Source of the DNA: Bacteroidota bacterium
GTDB taxonomy: Bacteria; Bacteroidota; Ignavibacteria; UBA10030; UBA8401
Direction: 5' to 3'
Assembly (NCBI GenBank): GCA_041665525.1
Contig: JBAYIS010000004.1
Span: 46,996-110,995, forward strand
DNA: 64,000 nt
Both the position numbers and the translations under genes were made by a program. Shown here piece by piece: positions 3,700-58,980 of the stretch (position 1 is its first letter; each line of letters opens with the position of its first letter). The notes below the pieces were generated by a model. That model ran no database searches, was not told the origin of the DNA, and worked only from the letters and a program-made list of their open reading frames with translations.

Positions 3700-4332
3700 A
3701 TGTCCACTGCGAAAGAATTAGTATCCATCGCGCATCGGGTTGAGGCGAAAGGACTTGTGGTCGCGACGGACGGGAATATCAGTGTCCGTCTTCCGAATGG
3801 GAATATTTTAACGACACCGACGTCGATCAACAAAGGCCAGGTAACCGAAGCGGACTTGGTGGAATTGACGATCGACGGAACGCAGGTAAACGGAACACGG
3901 AAGCCGTCCACAGAAATACAAATGCATCTGTTCATCTATCATGAACGACAGGATGTGAATGCAGTGGTGCACTGTCATCCGGTCTATGCGACGGGATTTG
4001 CTGCAGCGGGGATTCCGTTAAAGGAAAATGTTTTTCCGGAAGTCGTCGTGAGTTTAGGAAATATACCACTCGCACCGTTTGCGATGCCGTCCACGGAAGA
4101 GGTTGCTGAATCGCTCAGGCCGTTCGTAAAACAATATGATGCAGTGCTCCTTTCCAATCATGGCGCTGTTACGTACGGTAAAGATTTGTGGGATGCATGT
4201 TTTAAGATGGAAAAGGTAGAACAAGTTGCACGGATGTTATTCATTGCTGAAACTCTTGGGGGAGCTCGCCAGCTAAATGCCGCGCAGGTTACTCGCCTTA
4301 AAGAATTAGCCGCAACAGTTTACAAAAAATAA
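3700..4332 (+). CDS. Class II aldolase/adducin-family protein (fuculose-1-P aldolase / MtnB-like)
   Basis: VHCHPVYATGFAAAG is the metal-binding His motif typical of class II aldolases. The ORF is 210 aa. Confidence 0.75.
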   Translation: MSTAKELVSIAHRVEAKGLVVATDGNISVRLPNGNILTTPTSINKGQVTEADLVELTIDGTQVNGTRKPSTEIQMHLFIYHERQDVNAVVHCHPVYATGFAAAGIPLKENVFPEVVVSLGNIPLAPFAMPSTEEVAESLRPFVKQYDAVLLSNHGAVTYGKDLWDACFKMEKVEQVARMLFIAETLGGARQLNAAQVTRLKELAATVYKK

Positions 4333-7811: not shown

Positions 7812-8681
7812 ATGATCAGCAAAGAATTCCTCTCGAAAATACCGATCTTTAAATTCCTTCCGGAAGAGGATCACATCTCACTTGTGAGCTTGTGGAGAAT
7901 GAAATCCTTGAATGCCGGCGAAGTTCTTTTTCGAAAGGGAGAACCGGGTTCTTCCATGTATGTCATTGAAGAAGGCGAAATCGAAATCGTACTGCCGGTC
8001 GATCCGCCGGTAAATGAAGTTCAGCTGTCAATCATGCGGGAAGGTGAATTTTTTGGAGAGCTGTCGCTCTTTGCCGATACGCCGCGCACCGCGACGGCGC
8101 GGGCTTCGGTTGATACGAAACTCGTGGAAATGCAGCGGGGAGATTTTATTACGTTCGTGATGGAACGTCCTTCCATCGGCATTTCCATGCTGAGCGAAAT
8201 GGCGAAACGCTTGCAACTGACGAATGAGTTGATCACTTCGCTTGCATCGAAGAATCTCAACGAAGAGATCGAAGAAAAACTGACATTCGGCGACCGGGTT
8301 GCCGATAAGATCGCCGAGTTCGGCGGAAGCTGGAGATTTATCATTTCATTCGGTGCGTTTATGGCAATGTGGATCGGGATTAATGCATTGCAAATTATCG
8401 CACAGCCGTTCGATAAGTATCCATTCATTCTTTTAAACTTAATGCTCTCCACCGTAGCTGCACTGCAGGCACCGGTGATAATGATGAGCCAGAACCGCGC
8501 GCAGAAGAAAGACCGTCTGAAAGCAGATCTGGATTATCAAGTGAATGTGAAATCCGAATTGATGCTGCAACAGATGCACCAAAAAATGGACCGGCTGCTG
8601 GAAGAAGAGTTGGGGCATATCCGCAGGGAAATTACGATCATGCGGCCGATCGTGCAAAAAAAGAAACGAAAGAAAAAATGA
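7812..8681 (+). CDS. Cyclic-nucleotide-binding domain fused to a DUF1003 membrane domain. The C-terminus ends in a KKKRKKK tail.
   Basis: The N-terminus carries the cNMP-binding beta-roll motifs (GEFFGELSLF...PRTATARA). The C-terminus contains FGDRVADKIAEFGGSWRFIISFGAFMAMWIGINALQ and PFDKYPFILLNLMLS, a DUF1003-like two-TM region. Confidence 0.7.
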   Translation: MISKEFLSKIPIFKFLPEEDHISLVSLWRMKSLNAGEVLFRKGEPGSSMYVIEEGEIEIVLPVDPPVNEVQLSIMREGEFFGELSLFADTPRTATARASVDTKLVEMQRGDFITFVMERPSIGISMLSEMAKRLQLTNELITSLASKNLNEEIEEKLTFGDRVADKIAEFGGSWRFIISFGAFMAMWIGINALQIIAQPFDKYPFILLNLMLSTVAALQAPVIMMSQNRAQKKDRLKADLDYQVNVKSELMLQQMHQKMDRLLEEELGHIRREITIMRPIVQKKKRKKK

Positions 8682-9745
8682 GTTCGCGCAAACCGTTCAT
8701 CATTGCCGGCATCTGGTTCTTTTTAGGATTGATCTATTCCAGTCAATCCTTTTTTTATTCTCTCAGTGTCGGACGCGAATATGTTTGGCAGCGGTCGTTG
8801 TTTCACTCCTTCGTTTTTTGCCTGGAATGGGGGGTGTTGACGCCGTTCGTATTGAAGCTTGTCGAACGGTTCCGGCTGGATGACAAAAATCTTTACCGAA
8901 ATGTAACATTGCATTTCTTTATTGGAATCGGTGTTGCCGTTCTGCAGCAGACTGCCTACGTGCTGTTCACAGATTTTGTGGAAAATGGATTCGCGTTCTC
9001 AAGAACATTCTCCGGTTATCTTCCATCTATCGTTGGTTTCTTTGAATATGGCGTGTTAATGTATTGGTCTATCGTGTTTGTTCACCACGCTGTCGGATAT
9101 TATCGTCGCTACCAACAAGAAGAGCGCCGGAGCGCCCAGTTGCGGACTGAACTGATGGAATCGCAGCTTCAGGCGCTGAAGATGCAGCTGCAACCCCACT
9201 TTCTTTTTAACACGTTGAATGCAATTTCCGTATTGGTGAAGAAGGAGCCTGTTCTTGCCCAAAAAATGATCGTACGTTTGAGCGATCTGCTGCGCTTAAC
9301 GCTGGAACGGGGTTCGGAAAACGTGGTGACACTGGAACAAGAGCTGGAATTTGTGAATACGTACCTTGCCATCGAAAAAGTCCGGTTCGGCGACCGGCTC
9401 ACAATAAAAACAGAAATTGCGGAAATGACACTCCAGTCACTTGTCCCGACATTTATTCTGCAGCCGCTGGCAGAGAATTCCATCCGTCATGGCGTCGCGC
9501 ACCGGTCGGGAGAGGGGTGGATCAAAATTCAATCTACTCAAAAGGAGCAAACACTTTTCTTGAGTGTAAGTGACGGAGGAACACGGTCAACGCGATCAAA
9601 GAAACAGAACGACGGATTTGGCGTCGGACTGGAAAATACGCAACAACGGCTCCGTCAATTATATGGAAATGCATTTCAGTTTGATATTCAGGAAAACAAT
9701 CACAACGGACGTACCGTGACACTCGCGATTCCGTTAACAAAATAG
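8678..9745 (+). CDS. LytS/YehU-type sensor histidine kinase (multi-TM N-terminus, His_kinase PF06580 and HATPase domains)
   Basis: LQALKMQLQPHFLFNTLNAISVLV is the LytS-family H-box. A C-terminal ATPase region is present. Its start overlaps the upstream gene by 4 nt. Confidence 0.8.
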   Translation: MSSRKPFIIAGIWFFLGLIYSSQSFFYSLSVGREYVWQRSLFHSFVFCLEWGVLTPFVLKLVERFRLDDKNLYRNVTLHFFIGIGVAVLQQTAYVLFTDFVENGFAFSRTFSGYLPSIVGFFEYGVLMYWSIVFVHHAVGYYRRYQQEERRSAQLRTELMESQLQALKMQLQPHFLFNTLNAISVLVKKEPVLAQKMIVRLSDLLRLTLERGSENVVTLEQELEFVNTYLAIEKVRFGDRLTIKTEIAEMTLQSLVPTFILQPLAENSIRHGVAHRSGEGWIKIQSTQKEQTLFLSVSDGGTRSTRSKKQNDGFGVGLENTQQRLRQLYGNAFQFDIQENNHNGRTVTLAIPLTK

Positions 9746-9754
9746 TTCTTCTTT

Positions 9755-10537
9755 GTGGGACACTTGGTAAAATTCGTAAACAATATTACCGCAATCATTG
9801 TGGACGACGAGCCATTGGCCCGTCACGGTCTGCACGATATTTTGGTAGAAGAAAAGGATATTACCGTCGTTGCGGAATCTAAGGATGGCGAAGAAGCTGT
9901 TCGCCACATCCGGAAATATTCGCCGGATGTTGTGTTCCTGGATATTCAAATGCCGGAGAGCAATGGATTTGAAGTATTGGATGCCATTCCCAAAGAGACG
10001 ATGCCTTTGATTATTTTTGTGACCGCCTACGATGAATTTGCCGTGAAAGCATTCTCCGAAAATGCGTTGGACTATATATTGAAGCCATTCGACAGTGAGA
10101 GGGTCCATTCGGCATTGCACCGTGTTAGGACAATGCTTCAGATGAAGGAGCGGGCGGATTATTCGAAAAAGATTTTGGAGATTGTGAAACACTATCAATC
10201 ATCCCAAAAATATATTGACCGTATTCCTATCCGCAATGCAGGGAAGATCTCGTTTGTGAGTGTCGAGGATATTATTTGGATCGACGCTGCTGCGGATTAT
10301 ATAAACCTACATACAAGCTTCGGCACGTCAACCATTCGTGAATCGATTGGAGCGATGGAAGAACAGCTTGATCCCTCCAAATTTATCCGAATTCATCGTT
10401 CAACAATCGTTAATCTTCTTTTCATCCGCGAACTGAGACCGATGGATCATGGCGAGTACACTGCACTGCTGCGACAGGGGACCATACTCACCGTCAGCCG
10501 GACATACAAAAAACGCCTCGCATCAATGATTAAATAA
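9755..10537 (+). CDS. LytTR-family response regulator (REC + LytTR DNA-binding domain)
   Basis: The REC domain shows IIVDDEPLARHGL...VVFLDIQMP. The C-terminal LytTR domain shows ISFVSVEDIIWIDAAADYINLHT. Confidence 0.85.
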   Translation: MGHLVKFVNNITAIIVDDEPLARHGLHDILVEEKDITVVAESKDGEEAVRHIRKYSPDVVFLDIQMPESNGFEVLDAIPKETMPLIIFVTAYDEFAVKAFSENALDYILKPFDSERVHSALHRVRTMLQMKERADYSKKILEIVKHYQSSQKYIDRIPIRNAGKISFVSVEDIIWIDAAADYINLHTSFGTSTIRESIGAMEEQLDPSKFIRIHRSTIVNLLFIRELRPMDHGEYTALLRQGTILTVSRTYKKRLASMIK

Positions 10538-10641
10538 ACTGTAACCATCTATTTCATCCCTGCAATTCTCCACTTCATCGCAAAACAGTTCATTTCCCTG
10601 CGAGCAAGATGTATTTTTTCCTCACAACAATAGGAGGAAGA

Positions 10642-12939
10642 ATGAAACAATTGTTCAGTTTGCTCTTTGCCGCAACTCTTGTCGTCCAGGCGCAATATTT
10701 CACCAAAGTCACTGTCGGTCCTCAATCCAATGACGGAGGAGATTCGCGCAGTGTGAATTGGGTGGATTACAACAACGACGGGAATCTCGATCTCTTTATT
10801 ACCAACGGACCGTCGGCAAAGGCGAACAATTTTCTTTACAAAAATAACGGCGATGGAACGTTTACCAAAATCATCGATGCTTCGGTAGTGAACGATCCCG
10901 GAAGTTATGACGGCAGTACCTGGGCGGATTTTGATAATAATGGTTTCCTTGATGTGTTTACAGCATCATGGTATGGACAGAAAAACAGTTTTCACCGGCA
11001 ATTGAACGGACACTTTGAGAAAGTAACACGCAGCGATATTGCCAACGATCAGACTTATTCGGAAACCGGCAGCTGGGGAGATTATGACAATGACGGGTAT
11101 GTGGATCTGTATTTGGCGAACAGTGCCGTCAACAAAGCAAACCGCTTGTACAAAAACAATGGAGATGGAACCTTCACCACTATAACAACCGGCAGCATTG
11201 TCACCGATGCAAAGACTTCCCGGAGCGTGGATTGGTTTGATTATGACAATGACGGCGATCTTGATATCTTTGTCGCCAATGAAGGAGGGGAGAACAACTC
11301 GCTCTATCGAAATGACGGCGGCGGTATATTCACATCAATCACAACCGGTGCTGTGGTGAATGATGGAGGAAACTCCTTCGGCAGCAGTGTCGGTGATATT
11401 GATAACGACGGGGATCTGGATATTTTCGTTGCCAATCATGAAAATACGGCGGCATTTTTGTACAAAAACAACGGGGACGGAACATTCGCAAAAGTCAGTG
11501 CGGATCCTGTCGTGACACAAAACGGTTACTCCGTCGGCAGTGCATTCGGCGATCTTGATAACGACGGCGATCTTGATTTGATGGTGACGAATGCATTCAG
11601 CGGCAGCGTTGCAGCAAAAAATTTTCTGTATCTCAATAATGGAAATGGAACATTCGAGAATGTCGATACCGGCATAGTTGCGAACGATCCCGGCTGGTCA
11701 TACGGCGTAGCATTCGGGGACTATGACCGTGATGGTGATCTTGATATTGCTACGGGAAACTGTTTCGGAGCGAATCAAAACAATTCACTCTATAGGAATG
11801 AAGGGAATGGTAATGCCTGGATCACGGTGAAGTCGGTCGGGACTGTTTCGAACCGTTCCGCGATCGGAGCCAAAGTGCGGGTAAAAGCTACTATCAATGG
11901 AATTCCGGTCTGGCAGTACCGGCAGGTTGCAGGTCAATCCGGTTATTGCGGACAGAATCTGGAATCCCATTTTGGATTAGGAAATGCGACGGCGGTCGAT
12001 TCGCTGGTGGTTGAATTTCCTTCAGGTCAAAAAACAGTTATGACAACTGTTTCTGTGAAACAGGTTCTGACTGTAACGGAAACAGTTCCATCCGGATATT
12101 TGCGCGGAGCATTGATCGCCGATTCGCTGGACGGAAGGATTCCGTTCACTGTGCAGTTCAGCAGTCTGTCAATTGCAGATGCATCATCTCCGGTCAATTC
12201 GTGGAAATGGGATTTTCACAATGACGGTATTGTGGATGCAACAACGGAACATGCACAATGGACCTATACCGTGCCGGACACATATTCCGTCCGACTCATT
12301 GTCTCCAATGGAAGTGCCATTGATACTGTTTTTGCTGATGGTCTCATCCGGGTGCTGCGACCCGCATCGAAGCCGGTCATCACATCGTTTCTTCCAACTG
12401 TAGCGGATACCACTATACCGAAAAACGGGAAAGTGACCTTTGCAGTTTTCGTTCTGGATACATCCGATTCTCCGGTCCGATTCGTTTGGACGAAGAACAG
12501 AGCGGTGCAGGCTTCTGTTATCAACTCACTATCGTATGTATCTGCAATTTTCCAACCGGCACCGAGAACAGATACTATTTCTGTGGAAGTCTTTAACGAT
12601 TTTTATTCGATCAAAAATATATGGTTTGTTCATGTGGCGAATCCCGCCGGCATTGGCAGCGAAGATGCTTCAATTCTGCAATATCAACTTGCCCAAAACT
12701 TTCCCAATCCGTTTAATCCCGAAACAAAAATTCAATTTTCCATTCCTGTTTCGGGCAGAGTACAGTTGCGCATATGTGATGTTCTGGGACGGGAAGTCGC
12801 ACTGTTGTTGAATGAGGAACGAGATGCGGGAATACACTCTTTCATGTGGGATGGAAGTTTTTTGGCGAGCGGGATCTATTTCTGCACTCTGCACGCTGGG
12901 TCTTTTGTTGATACTAAGAAACTGGTATTGGCAAAGTAA
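10642..12939 (+). CDS. Secreted FG-GAP/VCBS-repeat protein (ASPIC/UnbV, CRTAC1-like) with a T9SS C-terminal sorting domain
   Basis: The signal peptide is MKQLFSLLFAATLVVQAQ, with an aggagg RBS upstream. There are many D-x-D-N-D-G-x-L-D repeats. The C-terminus ...AQNFPNPFNPETKIQFSIP...GIYFCTL... is a TIGR04183-type CTD. Confidence 0.8.
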   Translation: MKQLFSLLFAATLVVQAQYFTKVTVGPQSNDGGDSRSVNWVDYNNDGNLDLFITNGPSAKANNFLYKNNGDGTFTKIIDASVVNDPGSYDGSTWADFDNNGFLDVFTASWYGQKNSFHRQLNGHFEKVTRSDIANDQTYSETGSWGDYDNDGYVDLYLANSAVNKANRLYKNNGDGTFTTITTGSIVTDAKTSRSVDWFDYDNDGDLDIFVANEGGENNSLYRNDGGGIFTSITTGAVVNDGGNSFGSSVGDIDNDGDLDIFVANHENTAAFLYKNNGDGTFAKVSADPVVTQNGYSVGSAFGDLDNDGDLDLMVTNAFSGSVAAKNFLYLNNGNGTFENVDTGIVANDPGWSYGVAFGDYDRDGDLDIATGNCFGANQNNSLYRNEGNGNAWITVKSVGTVSNRSAIGAKVRVKATINGIPVWQYRQVAGQSGYCGQNLESHFGLGNATAVDSLVVEFPSGQKTVMTTVSVKQVLTVTETVPSGYLRGALIADSLDGRIPFTVQFSSLSIADASSPVNSWKWDFHNDGIVDATTEHAQWTYTVPDTYSVRLIVSNGSAIDTVFADGLIRVLRPASKPVITSFLPTVADTTIPKNGKVTFAVFVLDTSDSPVRFVWTKNRAVQASVINSLSYVSAIFQPAPRTDTISVEVFNDFYSIKNIWFVHVANPAGIGSEDASILQYQLAQNFPNPFNPETKIQFSIPVSGRVQLRICDVLGREVALLLNEERDAGIHSFMWDGSFLASGIYFCTLHAGSFVDTKKLVLAK

Positions 12940-13067
12940 TCCTTACACAATCTCTAATAATATACGAGTTTACAGATGTCAAGATTAATAAACGAAGATT
13001 GATACCTGCTTGGAATACTCTCTTTTTTCCTCTACATTCACGAGTCAATTATCTTTCAGGAGTGATA

Positions 13068-14687
13068 ATGGTTCGTCGATGTATAGTGGTATTGGTCTTA
13101 ATTTCCGTCTCACTGGCAGTGGGTCAAAAATCCGTCAAGCGTTCGCATGATGAAGCGAATCTCGAAGGAGTGACAAAGGAGCAGTTGTTCGATTATCTTT
13201 CCTTCATCGCGTCGGACGAACTGGAAGGACGCGATACGCCTTCCCGCGGCTTGAATATTGCTGCGAAGTTCATCGCCACACATCTCTCGCGGTGGGGATA
13301 TACACCGGCGGGAGACAGCGGTTCCTTTTTTCAAAAAATTCTCCTTCATAAAACCCGCGTTGTACCGGAACAATCGACCGTTACTGTTGGAGGGCGCACT
13401 TTTTCCTTTGGATCGGACTTTATCTCGCAGGCCATCACAGGGAATAGTACCGCACCCATGGTCTATGTGAAGAATGGCTACATTGTGAACTCGTTAAGTA
13501 TCAATCCGTATGCTGGCATTGACGTGAAAGGGAAGATCATGATCGTCACCGAAGGATACCCGAAAGGAGTTACGCGCGGAGATTTCGGACAAAAACTCGG
13601 GGAGGATTATGACACCCCTTCGAACTATGCCAAAAACAATGGTGCGGCAGGAATTATCTTAATCCCTTCTGCAAAGACATTGCAGCGATGGGAAACAGAA
13701 AAGAATTCGGTCACCATGAAAGGGACACTATCCGTTCCGGCATTAAAAAAACAGGATGTAAAAGGACCGGTACCGTACGTTACTGCATCGCATGCATTAG
13801 TGGAAGCGATCTTTGCCGGTGAAAATATCGGCGTGCAAACCATGACGGAAAAATCTGCAGCGGATTCTGCCCGCTCCTTTGATTTGTCCCCTACCAAGAA
13901 ATTATCAATGTCTATTGCTGTCCGCACCGATTCGTTATATTCACAAAATATTGTTGCAGTAAAACCCGGTTCGGACAAAAAACTCAAGGATGAGTATGTA
14001 GCGTTTGGCGCGCATTACGATCATATCGGTATCCGTCCGGAACCGGTGAATGGTGATTCGATCTACAATGGCGCGGACGATGACGGCAGCGGAACAGTGG
14101 GCTTGCTCTCCATTGCCGAAGCGATGGCGAAAGGACCTGCTGCGAAACGGTCCATTCTGTTTGTATGGCATATGGGTGAAGAAAAAGGATTGTGGGGATC
14201 AAAATATTTCGTGCAGAATCCGACGGTGCCGCTTTCGAATATCGTCACACAGCTGAACATCGACATGATCGGCCGCAGCAAACCGGATACGGGTGAGGCA
14301 TCGAAGAATGAGGAGTATTCACGTCCGAACGAACTGTTTTCGATCGGTTCGAATATGATGAGTACTGAACTCGGGAAAATGAACGACCAGGTGAATGCTT
14401 CGCTCTACAACATGAAACTCAATTATAAATACGACGATCCTTCCGATCCGAACAAACTCTTCTACCGAAGCGACCATTATAATTATGCCAGGATGGGAAT
14501 TCCGATCGTATTCTATTTTGACGGCATCCATGAAGATTACCACCGTGTGTCCGACGAGGTTTCCAAGATCGATTTCACAAAACTCATGAAGGTCACTCGC
14601 ACGATTTACGCACTGGGTTGGAAAATCGCAAATCTTCCGCACCGTCCGGTTGTCGATAAAAAGTTTTCCAGGGAAGAGATCGACTGA
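13068..14687 (+). CDS. M28-family aminopeptidase (with PA domain), secreted
   Basis: The signal peptide is MVRRCIVVLVLISVSLAVG. HYDHIGI and NGADDDGSGTVGLL are the metal-ligand motifs. Confidence 0.8.
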   Translation: MVRRCIVVLVLISVSLAVGQKSVKRSHDEANLEGVTKEQLFDYLSFIASDELEGRDTPSRGLNIAAKFIATHLSRWGYTPAGDSGSFFQKILLHKTRVVPEQSTVTVGGRTFSFGSDFISQAITGNSTAPMVYVKNGYIVNSLSINPYAGIDVKGKIMIVTEGYPKGVTRGDFGQKLGEDYDTPSNYAKNNGAAGIILIPSAKTLQRWETEKNSVTMKGTLSVPALKKQDVKGPVPYVTASHALVEAIFAGENIGVQTMTEKSAADSARSFDLSPTKKLSMSIAVRTDSLYSQNIVAVKPGSDKKLKDEYVAFGAHYDHIGIRPEPVNGDSIYNGADDDGSGTVGLLSIAEAMAKGPAAKRSILFVWHMGEEKGLWGSKYFVQNPTVPLSNIVTQLNIDMIGRSKPDTGEASKNEEYSRPNELFSIGSNMMSTELGKMNDQVNASLYNMKLNYKYDDPSDPNKLFYRSDHYNYARMGIPIVFYFDGIHEDYHRVSDEVSKIDFTKLMKVTRTIYALGWKIANLPHRPVVDKKFSREEID

Positions 14688-14702
14688 CCGGTAATCAAGA
14701 CG

Positions 14703-14726
14703 AGGCTGTCAACTTGTTGACAGCCT
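14703..14726 (+). terminator. Perfect hairpin aggctgtcaa-cttg-ttgacagcct downstream of the M28 peptidase gene. It could be a terminator, but there is no clear U-tract.
   Basis: A 10-bp perfect inverted repeat 16 nt after the stop codon. Confidence 0.3.
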
Positions 14727-14802
14727 TCAGATCGGCGTTTGTCCCTCCCCGGCAGCTGTTTATCCCTTTTGACGCACAGGCAATATACTCTCCCCCTTTT
14801 TT

Positions 14803-15885
14803 TTGCTACATTCAGTCATTGTGAAAATAAAATTTCTCTCTATTGTCATATTCTGGCTTCTCTTCGCCGTATTCATGACCGGCGTTATGTTGCTTGTCCA
14901 TCCTATCACCAATCGGCCTGAACCGGTGTGGCATGAGTTCATGTGGGAATTGGCTATTGCCATCGTATGGATCATTGGAACACCCATCGTGATGTGGCTT
15001 GCCAGAAGATTTTCCCTGCAGCAGAAGGACCGATTTCGAAACGGCTTTCTGTTGGTGATCATCGGCATCGTCATGTCCGCTGCGCAATGTGTTCTGCACG
15101 GGATCATTACCTATCTGACGCGATCCGATATAGCAACATTCAACAGTAACATCATCCTCACATCTCTCTTTTACAATATCGATAAGATGCTGATTATCTA
15201 TTGCGGACTGGTAATCTTGCAGCATGCGATGGATTTCTACCGGAGTTCTCAGGAGAAGGAATTGAAAGCATCGCGACTCGAAACGCAGCTGTCGCAAGCT
15301 CAAATGATGGCGCTGAAGATGCAGCTGCAGCCGCATTTCCTCTTCAATACACTCAATGCCATTGTGACACTGATCCATAAAGATCCGGACCAAGCGGAAG
15401 AGATGATCGTCCGGTTAAGCGATTTTCTGAGGATCACACTCGACGCTTCGGGTAGACAAATTGTTTCCTTAAAGGAAGAATTGGATTTCATCAAGGCCTA
15501 TTTGTCCATTGAAGAAGTGCGCTTCAAAGGGAGACTGAAATTTCACAACCGTGTTGAAGCAGATGTGTATGATGCACTGGTCCCTATGCTGATTATTCAG
15601 CCGCTGGTAGAAAATGCCATAAAACACGGATTTTCGCAGTTTGAAGGGGCTTCGGTATTGGAAATTTCAGCGCAAAAGAATAACGATATTCTGACGCTGA
15701 TCGTACAGGACGATGCTGCTCCGGACCTCGGCCAACAAACGATCAATGAAAAGATCGGTTTATCCAATATTCGCAGCCGGCTCTTGGCGTTGTATGGAGA
15801 AGCCGCTTCATTGACAATCATGCCGAACAGCAGCCGCGGCGTACGTGCAGTGATGAAAATCCCTTTTTCAGTGGAGCAGGCATGA
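14803..15885 (+). CDS. LytS/YehU-type sensor histidine kinase. It is a paralog of 8678..9745. The start is uncertain (TTG as listed; a GTG at 14821 is also possible).
   Basis: MALKMQLQPHFLFNTLNAIVTLI H-box; multi-TM N-terminus; HATPase C-terminus. Confidence 0.75.
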   Translation: MLHSVIVKIKFLSIVIFWLLFAVFMTGVMLLVHPITNRPEPVWHEFMWELAIAIVWIIGTPIVMWLARRFSLQQKDRFRNGFLLVIIGIVMSAAQCVLHGIITYLTRSDIATFNSNIILTSLFYNIDKMLIIYCGLVILQHAMDFYRSSQEKELKASRLETQLSQAQMMALKMQLQPHFLFNTLNAIVTLIHKDPDQAEEMIVRLSDFLRITLDASGRQIVSLKEELDFIKAYLSIEEVRFKGRLKFHNRVEADVYDALVPMLIIQPLVENAIKHGFSQFEGASVLEISAQKNNDILTLIVQDDAAPDLGQQTINEKIGLSNIRSRLLALYGEAASLTIMPNSSRGVRAVMKIPFSVEQA

Positions 15886-16640
15886 CGATCCAAACCCTTA
15901 TTGTCGATGATGAAGCGCTTGCGCGAGAGAGGATCAATTCACTGTTGAGCAATGAAAAAGAATTTCATGTTGTAGCGGAATGTGTCAACGGGAAAGAGGC
16001 GCTTCGGTTAATCGGCGAGAAGAAAATCGATCTTCTCTTTCTTGATATAGAAATGCCGGCGCTCGACGGCATCGGGTTACTGGAAAAACTTCCGGAAGAG
16101 AAATTACCGATGGTGATTTTTACAACGGCATACGATTCGTTCGCGGTGAAAGCATTCGAACTGAACGCGATCGACTATCTCTTAAAGCCATTCACAAAAA
16201 AACGCTTTCAGGATGCTCTTGAGCGGGTGAAACATAAATTCCGTTCTGAAGATAAAGATCTGTACTTGTCGCAAATGCTCGCCACAATCAAATCCGTTGC
16301 CGGGAAGAGCGTTTCGGACAAGCTGATTGTCAAGTCTGAAGGGAAGATCCGGTTCCTGTCTGCAACGGAAATTCTCTGGATTGAAAGCGATGCAAACTAT
16401 CTCCGGATACACACGGCCGGTGAAGCTGTCGTGATCCGGGATACGATGACCAATATTTCCGCACGGCTGGATTCTTCGGTATTTCTTCGATTGCACCGGA
16501 CTGTTATCGCCAATACAACGCACATCGTTGAACTGAAGCCGTGGTTCAACGATGAGTATATCGCCATTCTTCGCAACGGCACGCAGCTGCCCGTGGGACG
16601 GACATACCGCAAATCAGTAAACGCATTCTTCCAACTCTGA
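15882..16640 (+). CDS. LytTR-family response regulator (REC + LytTR). It overlaps the kinase gene by 4 nt.
   Basis: LIVDDEALARERI...LLFLDIEMP (REC). IRFLSATEILWIESDANYLRIHT (LytTR). Confidence 0.85.
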   Translation: MTIQTLIVDDEALARERINSLLSNEKEFHVVAECVNGKEALRLIGEKKIDLLFLDIEMPALDGIGLLEKLPEEKLPMVIFTTAYDSFAVKAFELNAIDYLLKPFTKKRFQDALERVKHKFRSEDKDLYLSQMLATIKSVAGKSVSDKLIVKSEGKIRFLSATEILWIESDANYLRIHTAGEAVVIRDTMTNISARLDSSVFLRLHRTVIANTTHIVELKPWFNDEYIAILRNGTQLPVGRTYRKSVNAFFQL

Positions 16641-16766
16641 CCGGCAAATCGGCGATTCATCCCTTTCCACCCCCCATTAATCCCGAAACCATATCCCTGT
16701 AATCGGTTTGTGCGTAGATTGCACCATCCAATACACACATTACTGCACACTCAAAAGGAACCTCCT

Positions 16767-18875
16767 ATGGTACGATCACTTCTACTTGTAATACTAACAG
16801 CGGTTACTGTAACGGCGAACATTCGCACTGTGCCGGCCGAATATGCAACGATCCAGTCAGCAATCAACGCCTCGGCGGACGGTGATACAGTCGTCGTTTA
16901 TCCCGGGACATATTTTGAGAATATCAATTTTAACGGGAAGAATATCGCCGTCACGTCGAGATTTTATGAAGCGAACGATATGCAGTTTGTTCTGCAGACT
17001 GTGATCAACGGGAGTCAACCGAAACATCCGGACACTGCAAGCTGTGTGTTGATCGTCTCCGGAGAAAATTCCTCTGCTGTGCTACAGGGATTCACATTAA
17101 CGGGAGGGAAGGGAACGCGATGGACAGATGAACACGGTGCGGGAATATATCGCGAAGGGGGAGGAATATTGGTCACGTTTTCTTCGCCGGTGATACGGTA
17201 CAATTATATCGTCAATAATGAGATCCTCAATACGGACAATGTCACGAGTACCGGCGGCGCCGGCATACGGATAGGAGACGGCGGCGGCATTATTGAAAAT
17301 AATGTGATCACTTTAAACAAAGCGATGTACGGTGGCGCCATCGTGCTGAACTATTGTTCCGGAACGATCATACGGAATAATATGATTGTGGAAAACAGTG
17401 TCCGTCAATATGATCAGTTCAAGCAGGGATTCGGCGGCGGCGGTATATGGATGGGTGCACCGAAACCGGGCGATGCATCTTCAAATATCGTTGAAAACAA
17501 TACCTTTTATGGGAATATCGCTTTGGACAATTGGATGTTGAGTGCGCTTGCTGGTCGTGGCGGTGCAATGATTATTCACGGCAGAGCGAAAGCGATTGTT
17601 CGCAATAACATACTGTGGGAAAATCATTCGTCCTATCCGATCCCGTCACTTGCGATTATGGCCGGCACTCACCCTGTGGAATATAATGATATCATGGGAG
17701 GATATTTGGGCGTTGGCAATATCGATGCAGACCCGCAATTCGCCGACTCCGGATTCATCCTGAAACCATCTTCTCCTTGCGTAGATGCAGGTGATACATC
17801 TTCACTTTCGTTCGATCCTATGGATGGATTAGTTGCCCGTTATCCGGCAAAAGGAACGGAACGGAATGATATGGGAGCATACGGCGGACCCGGCAGTCTT
17901 GCGTTTTTTGCTTTTTCCCGTCCGAGCGTCTACCTTCCGCTCGATCAGGTGAATTTCGGTTTACTGCTGCCGGGAGATTCGATATCACAAGGATTGACGG
18001 TGGTCAATTTTGGTTCGAAGGCGGCAGTGATTGACAGCATTCGGTTCACTTCGGCAGAGTTTTCCACAACAATCAGTATTCCGTTAACAATGGAAGTAAA
18101 CACATTGGAATCACTTCATCTTCAGTTGAAACCGTCGGAACAGAAGCGATACACTGACACAATGTTCATTTATCATAATTCCACCTTCATTCAGAATCCG
18201 CTGAAGGTTGTTCTGCGCGGGAGTTCAATTCCTACGCCCTTGATGAGCGTGAATCTGCTGGAACATAACTTCGGTGTTCTGGATATCAATACGCCATTGA
18301 AGGACACCACCATCTATATTCATAACCATGGGACGGGAAAAGATTCGATCCGTGTTTCGCTGAATTTCTCAACGGTAAAACCTGCGGATGCAATGACACT
18401 CTCGCAGACTGTGTTCACTCTTGCAGCGGGAGATTCACAGGCGGTGACATTTACATTTCATCCAAAGCAGATCACGAAGACGATCACCGGTCTCTATACT
18501 CCGCGAATCCTTTTTAAATCTTTCTTGGGAGAGGATACCACAACCGTCGAAAAAATTATGCGGTTCAAATTGTCGGGAATTCTCGGCCTTGGGGATAATT
18601 CCGTTGCCGTCGGGGAATACTCACTGAACCAAAACTACCCGAATCCTTTCAATCCGTCTACAAACATTAGGTTCACTGTTGCTGCGGATGGTCCTGTGCT
18701 ATTGAAAGTGTTTGACATCCTCGGAAATGAAGTTGCAACAATAATCAATAAGTACTTGAGTGCAGGCGAGCATCGCATTGAATTTAGTGCTGACCGGCTT
18801 GCCAGCGGGATCTATTTTTATCGGTTGATAGCAGGTAATTTCACCTCCATTAAAAAGATGACGGTCTTAAAATGA
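16767..18875 (+). CDS. Secreted right-handed parallel beta-helix (pectate-lyase-fold) protein with a T9SS C-terminal sorting domain
   Basis: Signal peptide MVRSLLLVILTAVTVTA. Repeated NNxI / GGAI beta-helix rungs. C-terminus ...NQNYPNPFNPSTNIRFTV...GIYFYRL.... Confidence 0.75.
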   Translation: MVRSLLLVILTAVTVTANIRTVPAEYATIQSAINASADGDTVVVYPGTYFENINFNGKNIAVTSRFYEANDMQFVLQTVINGSQPKHPDTASCVLIVSGENSSAVLQGFTLTGGKGTRWTDEHGAGIYREGGGILVTFSSPVIRYNYIVNNEILNTDNVTSTGGAGIRIGDGGGIIENNVITLNKAMYGGAIVLNYCSGTIIRNNMIVENSVRQYDQFKQGFGGGGIWMGAPKPGDASSNIVENNTFYGNIALDNWMLSALAGRGGAMIIHGRAKAIVRNNILWENHSSYPIPSLAIMAGTHPVEYNDIMGGYLGVGNIDADPQFADSGFILKPSSPCVDAGDTSSLSFDPMDGLVARYPAKGTERNDMGAYGGPGSLAFFAFSRPSVYLPLDQVNFGLLLPGDSISQGLTVVNFGSKAAVIDSIRFTSAEFSTTISIPLTMEVNTLESLHLQLKPSEQKRYTDTMFIYHNSTFIQNPLKVVLRGSSIPTPLMSVNLLEHNFGVLDINTPLKDTTIYIHNHGTGKDSIRVSLNFSTVKPADAMTLSQTVFTLAAGDSQAVTFTFHPKQITKTITGLYTPRILFKSFLGEDTTTVEKIMRFKLSGILGLGDNSVAVGEYSLNQNYPNPFNPSTNIRFTVAADGPVLLKVFDILGNEVATIINKYLSAGEHRIEFSADRLASGIYFYRLIAGNFTSIKKMTVLK

Positions 18876-19711
18876 AAACTCTGATGATAGGTGCAGTAAT
18901 CGGATTATGCGGACTCTTGTCCGCGCAATCCCGTCTCGATAGTGCCGCGTTGGAAGTAGCGCACAACGAACTGCTTTTCTCGCACTCTTCGGTCGTTAAA
19001 GGAAGGAATGCTGCGTTTTTGGAATTCTTTGACGACAGCTGCATGATATTCAATCCTTTGCCAGTCTTGGCAAAACCGTATTATAGGTCGCTGCCATCCA
19101 GAAAGACAATCTTGACTTGGAAGCCTTCTCGAATTGAGATTGCGTCCAGCGGTGACTTTGCATATTCCACCGGACCGTGGGAAATAAGGCCGGCAAAACT
19201 GACAGATACACCAGTCGCTACTGGTCATTATTTTTCTATCTGGAAAAAAACAAGTGCAGGCTGGAAAGTATTTTTTGACCACGGCATCGGATATCCGGCG
19301 GCCGCCGTAAAAGAGATACGTTTTTCTTATCTCGTACCGGTAGAGAGGCCGGGCAAGGATATTCAACGTCTCGAAAAAGGCCTGGTTGCTGCTGAAGAAA
19401 AACACTGCTTCGATCTGAAACAAGGTGCTATCGTATCGGCATACGAGCGGTATGCGGCAAATAATATCCTGTTACAGCGTGGAACTAAGTTTCCATTCGA
19501 TGGAAAAACAGTTGCAATTGCTGAAGTCAAGAATGACCGCCGCCCGGACCAGATTCGGCAATTTGGGTCTTCAATTTCTAACTTTGGTGATCTTGCGGTT
19601 ACCTATGGTATTTCCATCGCTGCAGAACAGGATACCAGCAACTATATCCGTGTGTGGAGATATGAAAAAGAGTGGAAGATTGCAGTGGATATATTGAATT
19701 CCATAAAATGA
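18872..19711 (+). CDS. Secreted protein with tandem NTF2-like/DUF4440-like domains
   Basis: Signal peptide present. GDFAYSTGPWEI...GHYFSIWKKTSAGWKVFFD and GDLAVTYGI...YIRVWRYEKEWKIAVD resemble the DUF4440 signature. Confidence 0.5.
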   Translation: MKTLMIGAVIGLCGLLSAQSRLDSAALEVAHNELLFSHSSVVKGRNAAFLEFFDDSCMIFNPLPVLAKPYYRSLPSRKTILTWKPSRIEIASSGDFAYSTGPWEIRPAKLTDTPVATGHYFSIWKKTSAGWKVFFDHGIGYPAAAVKEIRFSYLVPVERPGKDIQRLEKGLVAAEEKHCFDLKQGAIVSAYERYAANNILLQRGTKFPFDGKTVAIAEVKNDRRPDQIRQFGSSISNFGDLAVTYGISIAAEQDTSNYIRVWRYEKEWKIAVDILNSIK

Positions 19712-55714: not shown

Positions 55715-56626
55715 TTAATCGATAGAAAAATAGTCTTTTCCTTGATACGAGCCTTTTTGCTCCTTTGCAATCTGCATCAGGATGTCGTTGGCAAGACTGC
55801 TGGCGCCAAAACGGAACCATGTATTACTCATCCAAGCATCGCCAAGAGTTTCGTGGAGCATTACCAGATAATGGACGGCGAGTTTTGCCGTGGAAATGCC
55901 TCCGGCAGGTTTCATCCCGACCATTTTTCCGGTTTTATAATAGTGATCCTTGATCGCTTGCAGCATTACCAGCGTGACCGGCATAGTTGCGGCGGGTTGG
56001 ATTTTCCCTGTGGATGTTTTTATGAAGTCGGCGCCGGCATATATGGCAATATCACTGGCGCGGCGGATATTGTCCAACGTTGACAGCTCACCTGTTTCCA
56101 GTATCACTTTCAACCGTGAAGTACCGCAAGCTTCTTTCACTGCAGAGATCTCATCATACACAAAGCTATAATTCCCTTCCAAAAACTCTCCCCGGGAAAT
56201 GACCATATCGATTTCATCGGCTCCTTCTTCCACGGCAAAACGAACATCGCTAAGTTTCACTTCCCTGGTTGTATTGCCGCTAGGAAATGCCGTTGCAACT
56301 GATGCGACATGTATCCCGGTGCCGGCTAAAGATTGCTTCGCTGTACGGACATGGTTAGGGTAGACACAAACTGCAGCTACATTGGGGAGATTGGGCAGTT
56401 GATCGCACAAGTGGGAAGCTTTGTAGCACATTTGTTTCACTTTCCCCGCGGTATCTTTCCCCTCCAGTGTGGTCAGATCGATCATGCTTAGAGCGAGTTT
56501 CAGCGCCTGCATTTTTGAAGACTTCTTAATGCTGCGGGTGGTAAACCGTGCCACTCGCTCTTCAATACCGACCTGATCAATGACAGGACTCATGCGAAAA
56601 TTCGGTAATTCAATTGTTTTCATCAT
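55715..56626 (-). CDS. deoC: Deoxyribose-phosphate aldolase (long DeoC/DERA form)
   Basis: IDLTTL near the N-terminus. FIKTSTGK Schiff-base lysine motif. AGGI C-terminal motif. Confidence 0.65.
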   Translation of the reverse strand: MMKTIELPNFRMSPVIDQVGIEERVARFTTRSIKKSSKMQALKLALSMIDLTTLEGKDTAGKVKQMCYKASHLCDQLPNLPNVAAVCVYPNHVRTAKQSLAGTGIHVASVATAFPSGNTTREVKLSDVRFAVEEGADEIDMVISRGEFLEGNYSFVYDEISAVKEACGTSRLKVILETGELSTLDNIRRASDIAIYAGADFIKTSTGKIQPAATMPVTLVMLQAIKDHYYKTGKMVGMKPAGGISTAKLAVHYLVMLHETLGDAWMSNTWFRFGASSLANDILMQIAKEQKGSYQGKDYFSID

Positions 56627-58980
56627 TTTATGACGGTCATTTTCTTAATATCGGAATGATTCCCAGATGTAAATCTATAAAAATAAACCCCCGATGACAA
56701 CTGTTTAGCATCGAATTTTATTGAATACCTGCCGGGTGCCATGTTTTGATCTAAAATTGTCGAAAGTTCCTGCCCAAGTAAATTATAAACGCGAAGTGCA
56801 GTTCGACCCTGGTGGGCAACGGAAAATTCTATCATTGTTTCAGGATTGAAAGGATTCGGGAAATTTTGCGCCAAAAAATAAGAATAGGGAACGGAAGTTT
56901 TCGGAACATCATTCGTAATGGACGAATATGCCATAACTCTGATATCATCCAGATACCAACCGTCCGATTCGCGCCAGCCGTCGGAAGACAAACGAAACCG
57001 GAGAATGATCTCATTTCCAACAAAAGGAGTGAGATCTGCGGACTGCTCCACCCAGCTCAATCCCGGTGTGTAGGCATCATATCCAAATACATTCACCGGT
57101 TGCTTGCTCGGACTGCCATCAGAAGTTCTTCCCGAACCATTGCGTGACAGTTTCGTTTTCAGTGAGGTCCAACTTGTTCCTCCGTTCGTTGATACTTCAA
57201 TGACTGCGAAATCCCAGGTGGACTCAATTTTCCATTGTGTTCGGAATTTCAATTCTGCAAACTGATACTCCAGAAGCGAAAGTGGAGAGAGTAACGTCAG
57301 CGAACGATCCGCAAAGGGTTCGTAATTGCCGGCGGGACTATCGGTGAAGCAGGAGTTTCCGGTGAGCAGATCGTTTGTTACGTTCCATCGTGAATCAGTC
57401 GACCATAACGAAGTAGATTGAGCGCTGTCGTACAGCAACACTTTAGGTTCACCAGATATGAATGTGATGCTGTCATTCATCATTCCACCTGATGCTATGG
57501 TGAATGTTATTTTCGAAGCAATGCTAGTCGGTCCATCAACACTCAAAGCGTTATACGAGAATTGCAGTTCCTTTTCTCCCATAGACGGTATAATTCCTGT
57601 TTGGATAAAGGGAGTCACAATTCCGGTATTTGCTGTCAACTGGATTTTCGTGTCCTGCAATTCCTCCAGACCGTTGTTCACAATCCGCACAGTAATGGTG
57701 TTAATGTTTACGGAAAATGACCTGATGGAAGGATAAGCGCCGGCATAATGAGCAAGTAAATTATTTTGGAGAACATTTTCCTGGGCTAAGGGGTAAATAA
57801 GTGATGTAGCCGGCCAGAAAAAACCGGTCGTTCCGACTTCTGGAGTGAGTGAATACGTTCGGGATTTTGCCGAATCGCTGTACATAAAATCGTCGGAATT
57901 TCCCCGGGTGGAATAACCGACAGTTTGCTGATCCGTACCGATTGAATACCTGTTTATCATCGACATGTGATACGTCCATGTCCGAAACAACAGCGAATCA
58001 CTGCTTTCAGAAGAACTGTATCCCCACGGATAGATCAAATAGTTACCGTACGAATGGTAATTGAAACACGCCTTAATGGTGTGTGTTGTGAGGAATTGTT
58101 GGAGAGTGTATATCTCCGGTTCAGAAAAAGGGTGAGTTCCGCGGTAATCCTGCGCTGAGGTAATCGTTGAGGACCCGTCGTTCGGTGCATCCCACATGAA
58201 GAACGGGCCGTAATTGCGGTTGAGATCGACGCCATATGTATCGTCGCTGTTCTTCCGCCGGTTCTTCCTCCACATTCCTCCGCCGTTGGGATTCGTCGAT
58301 TGGTTATGCACATATCCGTCCGGATTGACCACGGGAATGAACCATAACTGGCGGTGTTGTATAAGATAGGCTGCTTCCGGATCGGATTGATAATTCTCCA
58401 AAAGCCACCACATGTAATAGATGAGCGTCATCATTCCCTGCGGCTCGCGGGCGTGATGAAGCGCTGTATAGAGCACTTCAGGCTCGTTTGTTTCATTAAT
58501 GTCCGGATTGTCCGAAATTTTTACAGCATAAATTGTTCTTCCCTCGATAGAAGTGCCGACGAAATCCTTTACAGTGATCAAATCGGGATAGAGAAGCTGC
58601 ATGGAATCGAGTTGCTGAATAACCTCCTGATATGTTAAAAATCCTCCCATTGCACCGTACCGGAAGTTTTTCGGAACATTGTTAGCAAATACTTGCTGTT
58701 TCGAAATATCCTGTGACTGTTGTTTCTGATAATATAGATCCCAATCCGCAATTTGTACTCGATAAGGAATCCCTGAGGTTTGTAACAGATGTAATTCTGA
58801 TTCATTGAGGAAAACAGAAATTGAGCTTCCGATCTTGCCGGTAAAATGGTCCACGGCTATTCCCAGAGAAGAGAGTTGTCGGTATTCACCAATAGTCTGC
58901 ACCGGAATTTCTACTTGGCTGTAACGTTCCTGCGAAAAGAGCAGTGAGATGCAAAAGAGAAAAATGGAGAGGAATTTCAT
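56623..58980 (-). CDS. M14-family zinc carboxypeptidase with a T9SS C-terminal sorting domain
   Basis: YTALHHAREPQG zinc-ligand motif. C-terminus ...AQNFPNPFNPETMIEFSV...GVYFYRF.... Confidence 0.8.
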   Translation of the reverse strand: MKFLSIFLFCISLLFSQERYSQVEIPVQTIGEYRQLSSLGIAVDHFTGKIGSSISVFLNESELHLLQTSGIPYRVQIADWDLYYQKQQSQDISKQQVFANNVPKNFRYGAMGGFLTYQEVIQQLDSMQLLYPDLITVKDFVGTSIEGRTIYAVKISDNPDINETNEPEVLYTALHHAREPQGMMTLIYYMWWLLENYQSDPEAAYLIQHRQLWFIPVVNPDGYVHNQSTNPNGGGMWRKNRRKNSDDTYGVDLNRNYGPFFMWDAPNDGSSTITSAQDYRGTHPFSEPEIYTLQQFLTTHTIKACFNYHSYGNYLIYPWGYSSSESSDSLLFRTWTYHMSMINRYSIGTDQQTVGYSTRGNSDDFMYSDSAKSRTYSLTPEVGTTGFFWPATSLIYPLAQENVLQNNLLAHYAGAYPSIRSFSVNINTITVRIVNNGLEELQDTKIQLTANTGIVTPFIQTGIIPSMGEKELQFSYNALSVDGPTSIASKITFTIASGGMMNDSITFISGEPKVLLYDSAQSTSLWSTDSRWNVTNDLLTGNSCFTDSPAGNYEPFADRSLTLLSPLSLLEYQFAELKFRTQWKIESTWDFAVIEVSTNGGTSWTSLKTKLSRNGSGRTSDGSPSKQPVNVFGYDAYTPGLSWVEQSADLTPFVGNEIILRFRLSSDGWRESDGWYLDDIRVMAYSSITNDVPKTSVPYSYFLAQNFPNPFNPETMIEFSVAHQGRTALRVYNLLGQELSTILDQNMAPGRYSIKFDAKQLSSGVYFYRFTSGNHSDIKKMTVIK

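Follow-up and report, generated by a model that had tools for sequence, protein, structure and literature searches.

In this study, we examined two LytTR-type two-component systems (TCSs) that lie within a 64,000-nucleotide stretch of contig JBAYIS010000004.1 of a Bacteroidota bacterium (hereafter the window), each consisting of a histidine kinase (HK) and a response regulator (RR) gene and each standing directly upstream of a gene for cargo of the type IX secretion system (T9SS). We propose that these two anciently diverged TCSs each control the promoter of the T9SS cargo gene directly downstream, a reading to which we give a probability of about 0.8. The comparative evidence covers gene content, direct-repeat dyads, their conservation and spacing, promoter register and synteny, and we infer from sequence the binding by the adjacent RR, activation over repression and the positions of the transcription start sites (TSSs). 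The genes of the two modules are the following:

8678–9745 (+): HK1, PF06580 His_kinase and HATPase_c core, four transmembrane (TM)-like segments with short loops
9755–10537 (+): RR1, REC and LytTR domains, phospho-acceptor Asp63 invariant in the ortholog alignment
10642–12939 (+): Cargo1, FG-GAP_3, UnbV_ASPIC, PKD and Por_Secre_tail domains, T9SS type A C-terminal sorting domain
14803–15885 (+, maximal open reading frame (ORF); probable extent 14821–15885): HK2, PF06580 core, four TM-like segments
15882–16640 (+): RR2, REC and LytTR domains, phospho-acceptor Asp55
16767–18875 (+): Cargo2, beta-helix/HYDIN-VesB Ig-like protein with Por_Secre_tail, T9SS type A sorting domain

Domain composition of the two modules

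The gene coordinates of both HK–RR–cargo modules had been given in a preliminary description of the window and all hold, the domains being confirmed by Pfam. The two kinases share 36% identity and the two regulators 41%. In both RRs the receiver domain is recognised by PF00072 (E = 2e-25 and 6e-25), D63 of RR1 and D55 of RR2 are invariant among orthologs, and the LytTR domain matches PF04397 with 83 and 87 bits (cut-off 22.6). A PDB search with full-length RR1 returned receiver domains for all of its best 60 matches; rerun with the C-terminal domain alone, it matched the solved LytTR structure 3d6w at E = 9e-5.

PF06580 is matched with 98.8 and 97.4 bits by HK1 and HK2, and HATPase_c with 29.6 bits by HK1 and with 18.2 bits, under the cut-off of 26.4, by HK2. 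Both kinases carry four TM-like segments with short loops within about 135 residues, an arrangement that suggests membrane-embedded sensing. The 5TMR-LYT and GAF sensor domains are absent from both (Pfam, E up to 0.01), and neither kinase matches an NCBIfam model for LytS or BtsS, so that of their earlier designation as LytS the PF06580 core could be retained and the 5TMR-LYT sensor could not.

Both cargo proteins exceed the cut-offs of the T9SS sorting-domain models, cargo1 with 32.2 and cargo2 with 39.7 bits for TIGR04183 (cut-off 23) and with 30.2 and 36.0 bits for PF18962 (cut-off 27), and their N-termini, MKQLFSLLFAATLVVQAQ and MVRSLLLVILTAVTVTAN, have the character of signal peptides as judged by inspection. 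The label 'beta-helix' for cargo2 is justified by homology, since its N-terminal half shares 46% identity with an ortholog bearing PF13229 Beta_helix. A T9SS C-terminal domain (CTD) is present on 4 of the approximately 54 window genes, which makes it unlikely (about 0.5%) that both LytTR modules precede such a gene by chance. No gene of the T9SS machinery (porK/L/M/N, sov, porU/V) was identified within the 64-kb window.

Orthologs, synteny and paralogy

The window forms part of a 360-kb metagenome contig (ENA ERZ27249449 k141_14953) from an Ignavibacteriales-like bacterium of the FCB group. The genomic surroundings of six orthologs of RR1 and of five of RR2 were retrieved. Identity declines from 74% down to 53% along the RR1 series and then drops to 49%, and from 83% down to 55% along the RR2 series before dropping to 48%. 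The order HK–RR–cargo is found in 7/7 loci of the RR1 group (group 1, 53–100% identity) and in 6/6 loci of the RR2 group (group 2, 59–100%). All RR1 orthologs have a kinase before them and an FG-GAP/ASPIC protein after them, with a T9SS tail wherever the gene is complete, while all RR2 orthologs are followed by a beta-helix/HYDIN-Ig protein and usually then by a DUF4440 gene, which is kept downstream of cargo2 in L090, L092, L094 and L096. The pairing also persists in L088, where the flanks differ (a gene of the PF00749 glutaminyl/glutamyl-tRNA synthetase family upstream, a TonB receptor downstream), and in L098, where they are entirely different. Because the linkage is kept even where the outer neighbours change, we consider each TCS to be functionally tied to its cargo.

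RR1 is up to 47% identical to acidobacterial regulators over the best segment, versus 41% to RR2, and since it is thus no closer to RR2 than to these regulators, the modules are better described as ancient paralogs than as products of a recent tandem duplication. The tandem order of module 1, cargo1, (beta-lactamase), M28 peptidase, module 2, cargo2 and DUF4440 is kept elsewhere, in L084/L095 (ERZ27249449 k141_856756) and in L094. The former belongs to another organism of the same sample, with RR identities of 64–68%, and because the order is kept in this second organism, the modules are long-standing neighbours despite their ancient paralogy. In total, they stand in tandem in at least three assemblies. 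In the most distant genome of the RR2 group (L098/L099, 8638–9762), an FG-GAP/ASPIC T9SS cargo gene lies directly after an AraC-family regulator and not after a LytTR module; apparently, the type of regulator to which this one cargo family is connected changes from lineage to lineage.

A 21-bp direct-repeat dyad in the RR-to-cargo regions

The preliminary description had pointed out an identical 9-mer about 90–110 nt before both cargo starts. We find TTCATCCCT on the plus strand at 10553–10561 and 16656–16664, at measured distances of 89 and 111 nt from the cargo ATGs. By itself the 9-mer is marginal and not beyond chance. It occurs 3 times in the window versus 0.75 expected, a count reached by 4/100 shuffles, and its third copy, at 24283 on the minus strand, lies within a coding sequence (CDS) and has no dyad partner. 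Moreover, 5.5% of shuffled versions of the two cargo upstream regions share some 9-mer, as do 28/210 real intergenic pairs in the window.

Alignment of the RR-stop-to-cargo-start regions of all orthologous loci identified the 9-mer as the distal half of two directly repeated elements that start exactly 21 bp from each other, with an 8-nt core and a 13-nt spacer and the half-site pattern TT[C/T/A][A/G]TC[C/G]C. The ninth base of the 9-mer (T) is not conserved, the conserved core comprising 8 nt plus a 5' C-rich flank. With R1 denoting the distal and R2 the proximal repeat, the two predicted cargo operators are:

10553–10581 (+): operator 1, R1 TTCATCCC at 10553–10560, 13-nt spacer, R2 TTCATCGC at 10574–10581; 25.5 bits, kept in 7/7 group-1 loci
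16656–16684 (+): operator 2, R1 TTCATCCC at 16656–16663, 13-nt spacer, R2 TTAATCCC at 16677–16684; 24.2 bits, kept in 6/6 group-2 loci

A dyad at exactly 21 bp is present in 13/13 RR-to-cargo regions, 12 of which were aligned while the thirteenth, L220, was examined afterwards and is out-of-sample; RR identity across the dyad-bearing orthologs is 53–83%. Twelve loci match the doubled TTCATCCC consensus at 12–16 of 16 positions and L220 at 13 of 16. Pooled over 36 half-sites, the base counts are T36 T34 C23 A26 T35 C36 C28 C35, with C at position -3 in 30/36, giving an extended half-site of [G/C]CCnTTCATCCC, also written [G/C]CCnTTCATC(C/G)C. Information content amounts to 1.6–1.84 bits per column in the half-sites, 0.8–0.9 in the spacer and 0.65–1.2 in the upstream flank, a profile that looks like a typical phylogenetic footprint in which spacer and flanks have diverged. 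Altogether, three dyads in the window (the third is described below) and 18 more at orthologous loci, all with 21-bp periodicity, constitute the evidence at the sequence level. This geometry fits the layout of LytTR target sites, and binding of a regulator is predicted on these grounds; LytTR sites in general comprise two repeats of 9–11 nt with spacers of 11–13 nt (PMC4847170).

The suggestion that the 9-mer forms part of an operator is thus borne out at the level of prediction, the 9-mer being the distal half-site of a dyad that is kept in all 13 RR-to-cargo regions and, as described in the next section, stands in fixed register to a putative -7 box. The CCCTG elements proposed as its partner repeats are present as catttccctg (10591–10600) and catatccctg (16690–16699), but a role as second half-sites was rejected: they are poorly conserved in orthologs and sit at R2+15 to +25, in the -33 region.

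The half-sites are nearly identical in both groups, with one consistent difference. Position 7 of R2 is G in 7/7 group-1 sites, there followed by AAA(A/G), and C in 12/12 group-2 sites (Fisher exact p = 5e-5 on the 6-versus-12 comparison, which excludes L220). It is plausible that this position is the discriminator between the two systems. Since both modules use almost the same half-site, cross-talk is possible.

Promoter register of the predicted cargo operators

Across orthologs, the dyad follows the RR stop after anything from 4 to 30 nt, whereas R2 and the cargo ATG are spaced by 68 nt in 6/7 group-1 loci and by 86–94 nt in 5/6 group-2 loci. Because the former interval varies and the latter is kept, we assign the dyad to the downstream gene. 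The equal 15-nt offset from each RR stop within the window, which might have seemed meaningful, is a coincidence in view of the 4–30 nt seen in orthologs. No terminator-like hairpin was found between RR and cargo.

A TAnnTT box occurs at R2+38 in 13/13 cargo promoters and likewise in L138, a locus of a third paralog group. It reads TAnnTTT in group 1 and TAGATTG[C/T] in group 2, and in the window it is represented by:

10612–10619 (+): putative -7 box TATTTTTT (TAnnTTTG-like) at R2+38, with a Shine-Dalgarno (SD) sequence AGGAGG at 10632–10637
16715–16722 (+): putative -7 box TAGATTGC (TAnnTTGY type) at R2+38

The sigma-A -7 box of Flavobacterium, TAnnTTTG, spans -12 to -5, and a one-base-shorter TAnnTTGY occurs at the same position (PMC9723704); a related RpoD motif has been described in Chlorobi, the sister group of Ignavibacteria (bioRxiv 10.1101/172254). 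If the box is placed at -12 to -5, R2 would lie at about -50 to -43 and R1 at about -71 to -64, the usual position of a LytTR activator. AgrA, for comparison, sits just upstream of promoters P2 and P3 (PMC4227749).

Two side observations concern the same promoters. The group-2 sequence TAGATTG[C/T] matches the TAnnTTGY variant 'SM5', which in the TSS map of Flavobacterium psychrophilum is tied to gliding/T9SS and lipopolysaccharide (LPS) genes, and the group-2 cargo promoters possibly represent a distinct sigma or promoter class other than canonical sigma-A TAnnTTTG. The cargo genes carry strong AGGAGG/AAGGA SD sequences, unlike HK2.

Matrix scan and a predicted third operator

A weight matrix was built from 20 half-sites of ten non-window orthologs, and both strands of the window were scanned. 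Of about 128,000 positions, 10553 (25.5 bits), 16656 (24.2 bits) and 14738 (21.9 bits) came out on top, the next best reaching 17.0 bits, and among spacings of 12–30, scores above 19 occur only at 21. Three dyads of at least 21.9 bits were observed versus 0.003 (independent, identically distributed model) or 0.011 (first-order Markov model) expected per window. In 2500 Markov simulations, two or more such dyads never occurred together, and 4/2500 runs reached at least 24 bits, so that a single Markov run with 25.5 bits represents a rare event. Since the dyad count lies far above the simulated expectation, the signal beyond chance is the 21-bp dyad containing the 9-mer.

The third-ranked dyad, missed in the preliminary description, lies upstream of HK2–RR2:

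14738–14766 (+): operator 3 (predicted autoregulatory), R1 TTTGTCCC at 14738–14745, N13, R2 TTTATCCC at 14759–14766
14807–14812 (+): conserved TACATT box, located at R2+48 downstream of a T-run; the probable HK2 start follows after 8 nt

A dyad upstream of HK2 is present in 5/5 RR2-group orthologs with 20.2–26.8 bits, none of them used for the matrix (6/6 loci including the window), and its position suggests autoregulation of HK2–RR2. The HK2 promoters share a conserved T-run and TACATT at R2+48 in 5/6 loci and at +49 in L098, i.e. one helical turn further than the R2+38 of the cargo promoters. TACATT stands 8–14 nt before the conserved MKIKFL-type start of HK2. As the start of the maximal ORF would overlap this box, and in agreement with the ortholog alignment, HK2 probably starts at GTG 14821 and not at TTG 14803; in L091, the orthologous protein is annotated with 354 aa. 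The HK2 mRNA may be leaderless or have a very short leader.

Module 1 differs in this respect, with no dyad upstream of it in the window, L084, L086, L087, L088 or L220. The matrix scan of the window likewise found no dyad upstream of the M28 peptidase gene or of the other two T9SS cargo genes, 56623–58980 (-) and 58977–60665 (-). Because these two cargo genes lack it, the operator belongs to the modules specifically and is no signal of T9SS cargo in general. As T9SS-CTD genes, the two overlap by 4 nt on the minus strand and form an operon.

Flanking genes and transcript boundaries

Three further features border the modules:

7812–8681 (+): gene for a cNMP-binding and DUF1003 membrane protein (Pfam), 4-nt overlap with the HK1 start
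14702–14727: 11-bp-stem perfect palindrome (AGGCTGTCAAC-nnnn-GTTGACAGCCT), 15 nt past the M28 peptidase stop and 10 nt before operator 3
18872–19711 (+): gene for a DUF4440 protein with signal peptide, 4-nt overlap with the cargo2 stop

The DUF4440 gene is probably co-transcribed with cargo2, and the module-1 operon probably begins with the cNMP-binding/DUF1003 gene. The latter overlaps HK1 by 4 nt in five RR1-group loci (window, 7812–8681 (+); L084, 2566–3438; L086, 2566–3438; L087, 2569–3438; L220, 2546–3415) whereas it does not do so in L088. Module 1 may accordingly form a three-component system, with a cyclic-nucleotide sensor coupled to the kinase in translation. The palindrome is probably a terminator or transcript boundary ahead of the HK2 promoter, albeit one that lacks a plus-strand T-tract.

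Wider distribution of the dyad

A scan of a genome collection with the RR1 ortholog alignment, run with generic LytTR/REC motif patterns, listed matches among which the RRs are 34–47% identical, come mostly from Acidobacteriota and include no true orthologs; these loci were reused as a distant-relative control. In 80 distant LytTR loci, 7 dyads of at least 20 bits were found in 1.5 Mb of positions versus about 0.17 expected, two of the seven in L028, a locus of the genome that also contains L098. The acidobacterial modules L003 and L004, whose RRs are 44–45% identical to RR1, have the kinase operon and a speA-like arginine decarboxylase gene in divergent orientation, with a dyad between the two at 3555 (-) in L003 and one of 18.1 bits at 3829 (-) in L004; the dyad is directed towards the decarboxylase gene, which may be a conserved target of this regulator clade outside T9SS. 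In L006, a beta-propeller gene that lies downstream of the RR has a dyad 103 nt ahead of it. Adjacency of LytTR modules to T9SS cargo was found in only one of the 80 distant loci, again L028. The link to T9SS cargo is established for two ortholog groups only.

L138 (5891–9219) carries the HK–RR pair of the third paralog group, its RR being 41% identical to both RR1 and RR2. A perfect TTCATCCC-N13-TTCATCCC dyad begins 32 nt past the RR stop, with TAGATTG at R2+38, and the next ORF, for a CytoC_RC-like multihaem cytochrome, starts about 300 nt downstream. The operator type seems older and broader than the two modules of the window.

As a regulon finder in metagenomes, the exact dyad was rejected, 117/120 matches lying away from any LytTR TCS and representing chance or 21-bp tandem repeats. 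The metagenome matches did include L138 and also L182, where a dyad stands just before a PF06580 kinase gene, and in these two loci the two architectures of the window recur. In L115, L136, L152, L168, L193, L202 and L213, TTCATCCC occurs in 3–4 consecutive 21-bp units unrelated to LytTR modules, and such tandem runs give false positives in dyad pattern searches.

Discussion

We propose a model in which a membrane-embedded PF06580 kinase without a large periplasmic domain would phosphorylate a REC–LytTR regulator at Asp63 (RR1) or Asp55 (RR2). The regulator would then bind the two direct repeats, whose starts are two helical turns (21 bp) apart, as a head-to-tail dimer and, in its phosphorylated form, activate the neighbouring cargo promoter from repeats that lie next to a weak -33 element, the classical position of an activator. 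In module 2, the second operator before HK2–RR2 (R2+48) would add positive autoregulation, and the regulon is predicted to comprise HK2, RR2 and cargo2 together with the DUF4440 gene, which is translationally coupled. Module 1 would possess the cargo operator only and share its operon with the gene for the cNMP-binding DUF1003 membrane protein. It is probably the proximal repeat that gives each system its specificity, position 7 being G, plus AAA(A/G), in group-1 sites and C in those of group 2.

Several known systems resemble this arrangement in part. AlgZ(FimS)/AlgR of Pseudomonas aeruginosa likewise combines a PF06580-type membrane kinase with a REC–LytTR regulator, and the AlgR core site 5'-CCGTTCGTC-3' (PMC4064291) resembles the extended half-site found here, CCnTTC(A/G)TC, with 17/36 half-sites at no more than 2 mismatches and 2 identical. 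AlgR, however, is a global regulator whose sites are often single, scattered, promoter-distal and in either orientation, whereas the sites described here are strict 21-bp tandem pairs in a fixed promoter-proximal position before the adjacent gene, and the RRs score below the AlgR equivalog cut-off. BtsS/BtsR (YehU/YehT) and YpdA/YpdB of Escherichia coli are similar LytS/LytTR-type systems with very small regulons of about one target gene, and their sites are direct repeats of about 9–10 nt with an 11–13 nt spacer just upstream of the promoter (PMC4847170). The E. coli kinases, in contrast, carry 5TMR-LYT and GAF domains, their targets are transporters and not T9SS cargo, and the YpdB half-site GGCATTTCAT differs from the one found here. 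BtsR is the best NCBIfam hit of RR1, yet RR1 and RR2 reach only 189.9 and 165.6 bits against its equivalog cut-off of 246, and 168 and 175 bits against the LytR cut-off of 375.

Tandem direct repeats separated by two helical turns upstream of activator-dependent promoters are also known from AgrC/AgrA, ComD/ComE and Pln-type systems, in which the kinase–regulator operon is positively autoregulated (PMC4227749), as proposed here for module 2, while module 1 has no such dyad. These systems differ in their HPK10-type kinases, the kinases here being PF06580 proteins in a Gram-negative bacterium of the FCB group. No pheromone-peptide gene, processing protease or ABC exporter was recognised among the neighbours of the locus, and since it lacks pheromone and exporter genes, the locus is not of the agr/com quorum-sensing type. 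PorX/PorY–SigP shares with our modules a two-component control linked to T9SS within the same superphylum; PorX, however, is a REC–PglZ protein that acts on genes of the secretion machinery via an extracytoplasmic function (ECF) sigma factor, whereas here LytTR regulators would act on single cargo genes. RR1 matches the PorX model with 44 bits (cut-off 300), through the REC domain only.

That the shared 9-mer is a functionless coincidence between two C/T-rich intergenic regions would agree with its own statistics, i.e. three copies where 0.75 are expected, the partnerless copy within a CDS at 24283, and the frequency with which shuffled regions (5.5%) and real intergenic pairs (28/210) share a 9-mer. 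Yet the dyad is kept in 13/13 orthologous regions while spacer and flanks diverge, and a matrix made independently of the window ranks its sites first to third where 0.011 are expected. The phylogenetic footprint, in which the spacer columns have randomised, effectively refutes chance, to which we leave a negligible probability. Almost as remote is the reading of the conserved blocks as structured RNA, be it a 3' untranslated region (UTR), a 5' leader or an attenuator. Their place in a transcribed-looking gap between co-oriented genes without a terminator would allow it, but no Rfam match was obtained at E up to 1, folding energies are like those of shuffles (z = -0.5, 0.1 and -1.0), the repeats are direct and not inverted with a phasing of two DNA helical turns, and the same dyad recurs upstream of HK2 after a terminator-like palindrome, in a non-transcribed context.

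More weight has to be given to explanations that accept the dyads as real operators. One of them holds that they are shared, RR1, RR2 or a third LytTR regulator binding all three sites in one cross-regulated network. The half-site consensus TTCATCCC is indeed common to both groups and the R1 repeats in the window are identical, similar dyads stand beside the third paralog group in L138 and beside distant acidobacterial LytTR modules, and the two modules are in tandem in at least three assemblies. Against this, R2 position 7 and the AAA(A/G) tail split the groups perfectly (7/7 versus 12/12), the autoregulatory site bears the group-2 signature only, and each operator travels with its own RR where neighbourhoods differ (L088, L098), so that we regard a shared network as rather unlikely. 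The earlier idea of a dedicated control of each cargo by its own TCS consequently has to be divided: the functional tie is upheld by synteny in 13/13 loci, while exclusivity is not, in view of the near-identical half-sites and the second operator of module 2. Alternatively, the dyad could act by repression or as a roadblock, for instance by curbing read-through out of the RR gene or by silencing the cargo promoter. Read-through is conceivable as no terminator separates RR and cargo, the dyad begins only 4–30 nt past the RR stop, and AlgR and AgrA do repress at some promoters (PMC4064291, PMC4227749). The distance to the -7-type box, on the other hand, is invariant at 38 nt (48 nt at the HK2 promoter) while that to the RR stop varies, a position upstream of a weak -33 element is typical of activators, and autoregulatory sites before LytTR operons are classically activating; repression or roadblocking is thus improbable.

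Direct activation of each cargo gene by its adjacent TCS remains our preferred reading, against which the following points have to be set. L220, the most distant group-1 ortholog, carries a weak dyad of 17.0 bits. The orthologous loci are related by descent, L086/L087 being close and L094/L096 fairly close, and this shared ancestry reduces the effective sample to about 4–5 per group. The training half-sites were chosen as the best match to the window consensus, a mild circularity that the constant spacing to the -7 box and the out-of-sample status of the HK2 sites counterbalance. The assignment of this box follows by analogy from the Flavobacterium/Chlorobi consensus and not from one of the host lineage. 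As half-sites are near-identical in both groups, the assignment of each operator to the adjacent RR is a prediction from gene order. Finally, in the metagenome scan only 3/120 matches of the exact TTCATCCC-N13-TTCATCCC dyad lie beside a LytTR TCS.

A wider interpretation, which we entertain tentatively and with less confidence than doubt, would join these observations. Here, TTCATCCC-N13-TTCATCCC would be the ancestral, AlgR-site-related operator of a very large clade of PF06580-kinase/LytTR systems in Ignavibacteriota/Bacteroidota and Acidobacteriota, acting as 'one sensor, one neighbouring gene' switches that were recruited in T9SS lineages to toggle single surface proteins, with module 1 as a three-component version in which the DUF1003 protein gates the kinase. 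If true, it would constitute the first regulatory code for cargo-specific T9SS control and, at the same time, a code for the most abundant and least understood regulator class of these phyla.

Conclusions

LytTR regulators paired with PF06580 kinases are among the commonest TCSs in Bacteroidota, Ignavibacteriota and Acidobacteriota. In the literature, we found LytTR and type IX secretion mentioned together only in passing, and no operator or target gene described. The mechanism proposed here, with tandem repeats, activator position and autoregulation, is textbook LytTR, not previously described in this little-studied bacterial lineage and for this target class, and the advance is incremental. 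The locus supplies a testable operator defined by sequence, spacing and promoter register, with two T9SS-secreted proteins, one of the FG-GAP/ASPIC and one of the beta-helix type, as predicted targets, and it offers the contrast of an autoregulated and a non-autoregulated paralog together with R2 position 7 as candidate specificity determinant. It indicates that T9SS cargo can be regulated gene by gene by local sensors, beside the machinery-level control exerted by PorXY/SigP.

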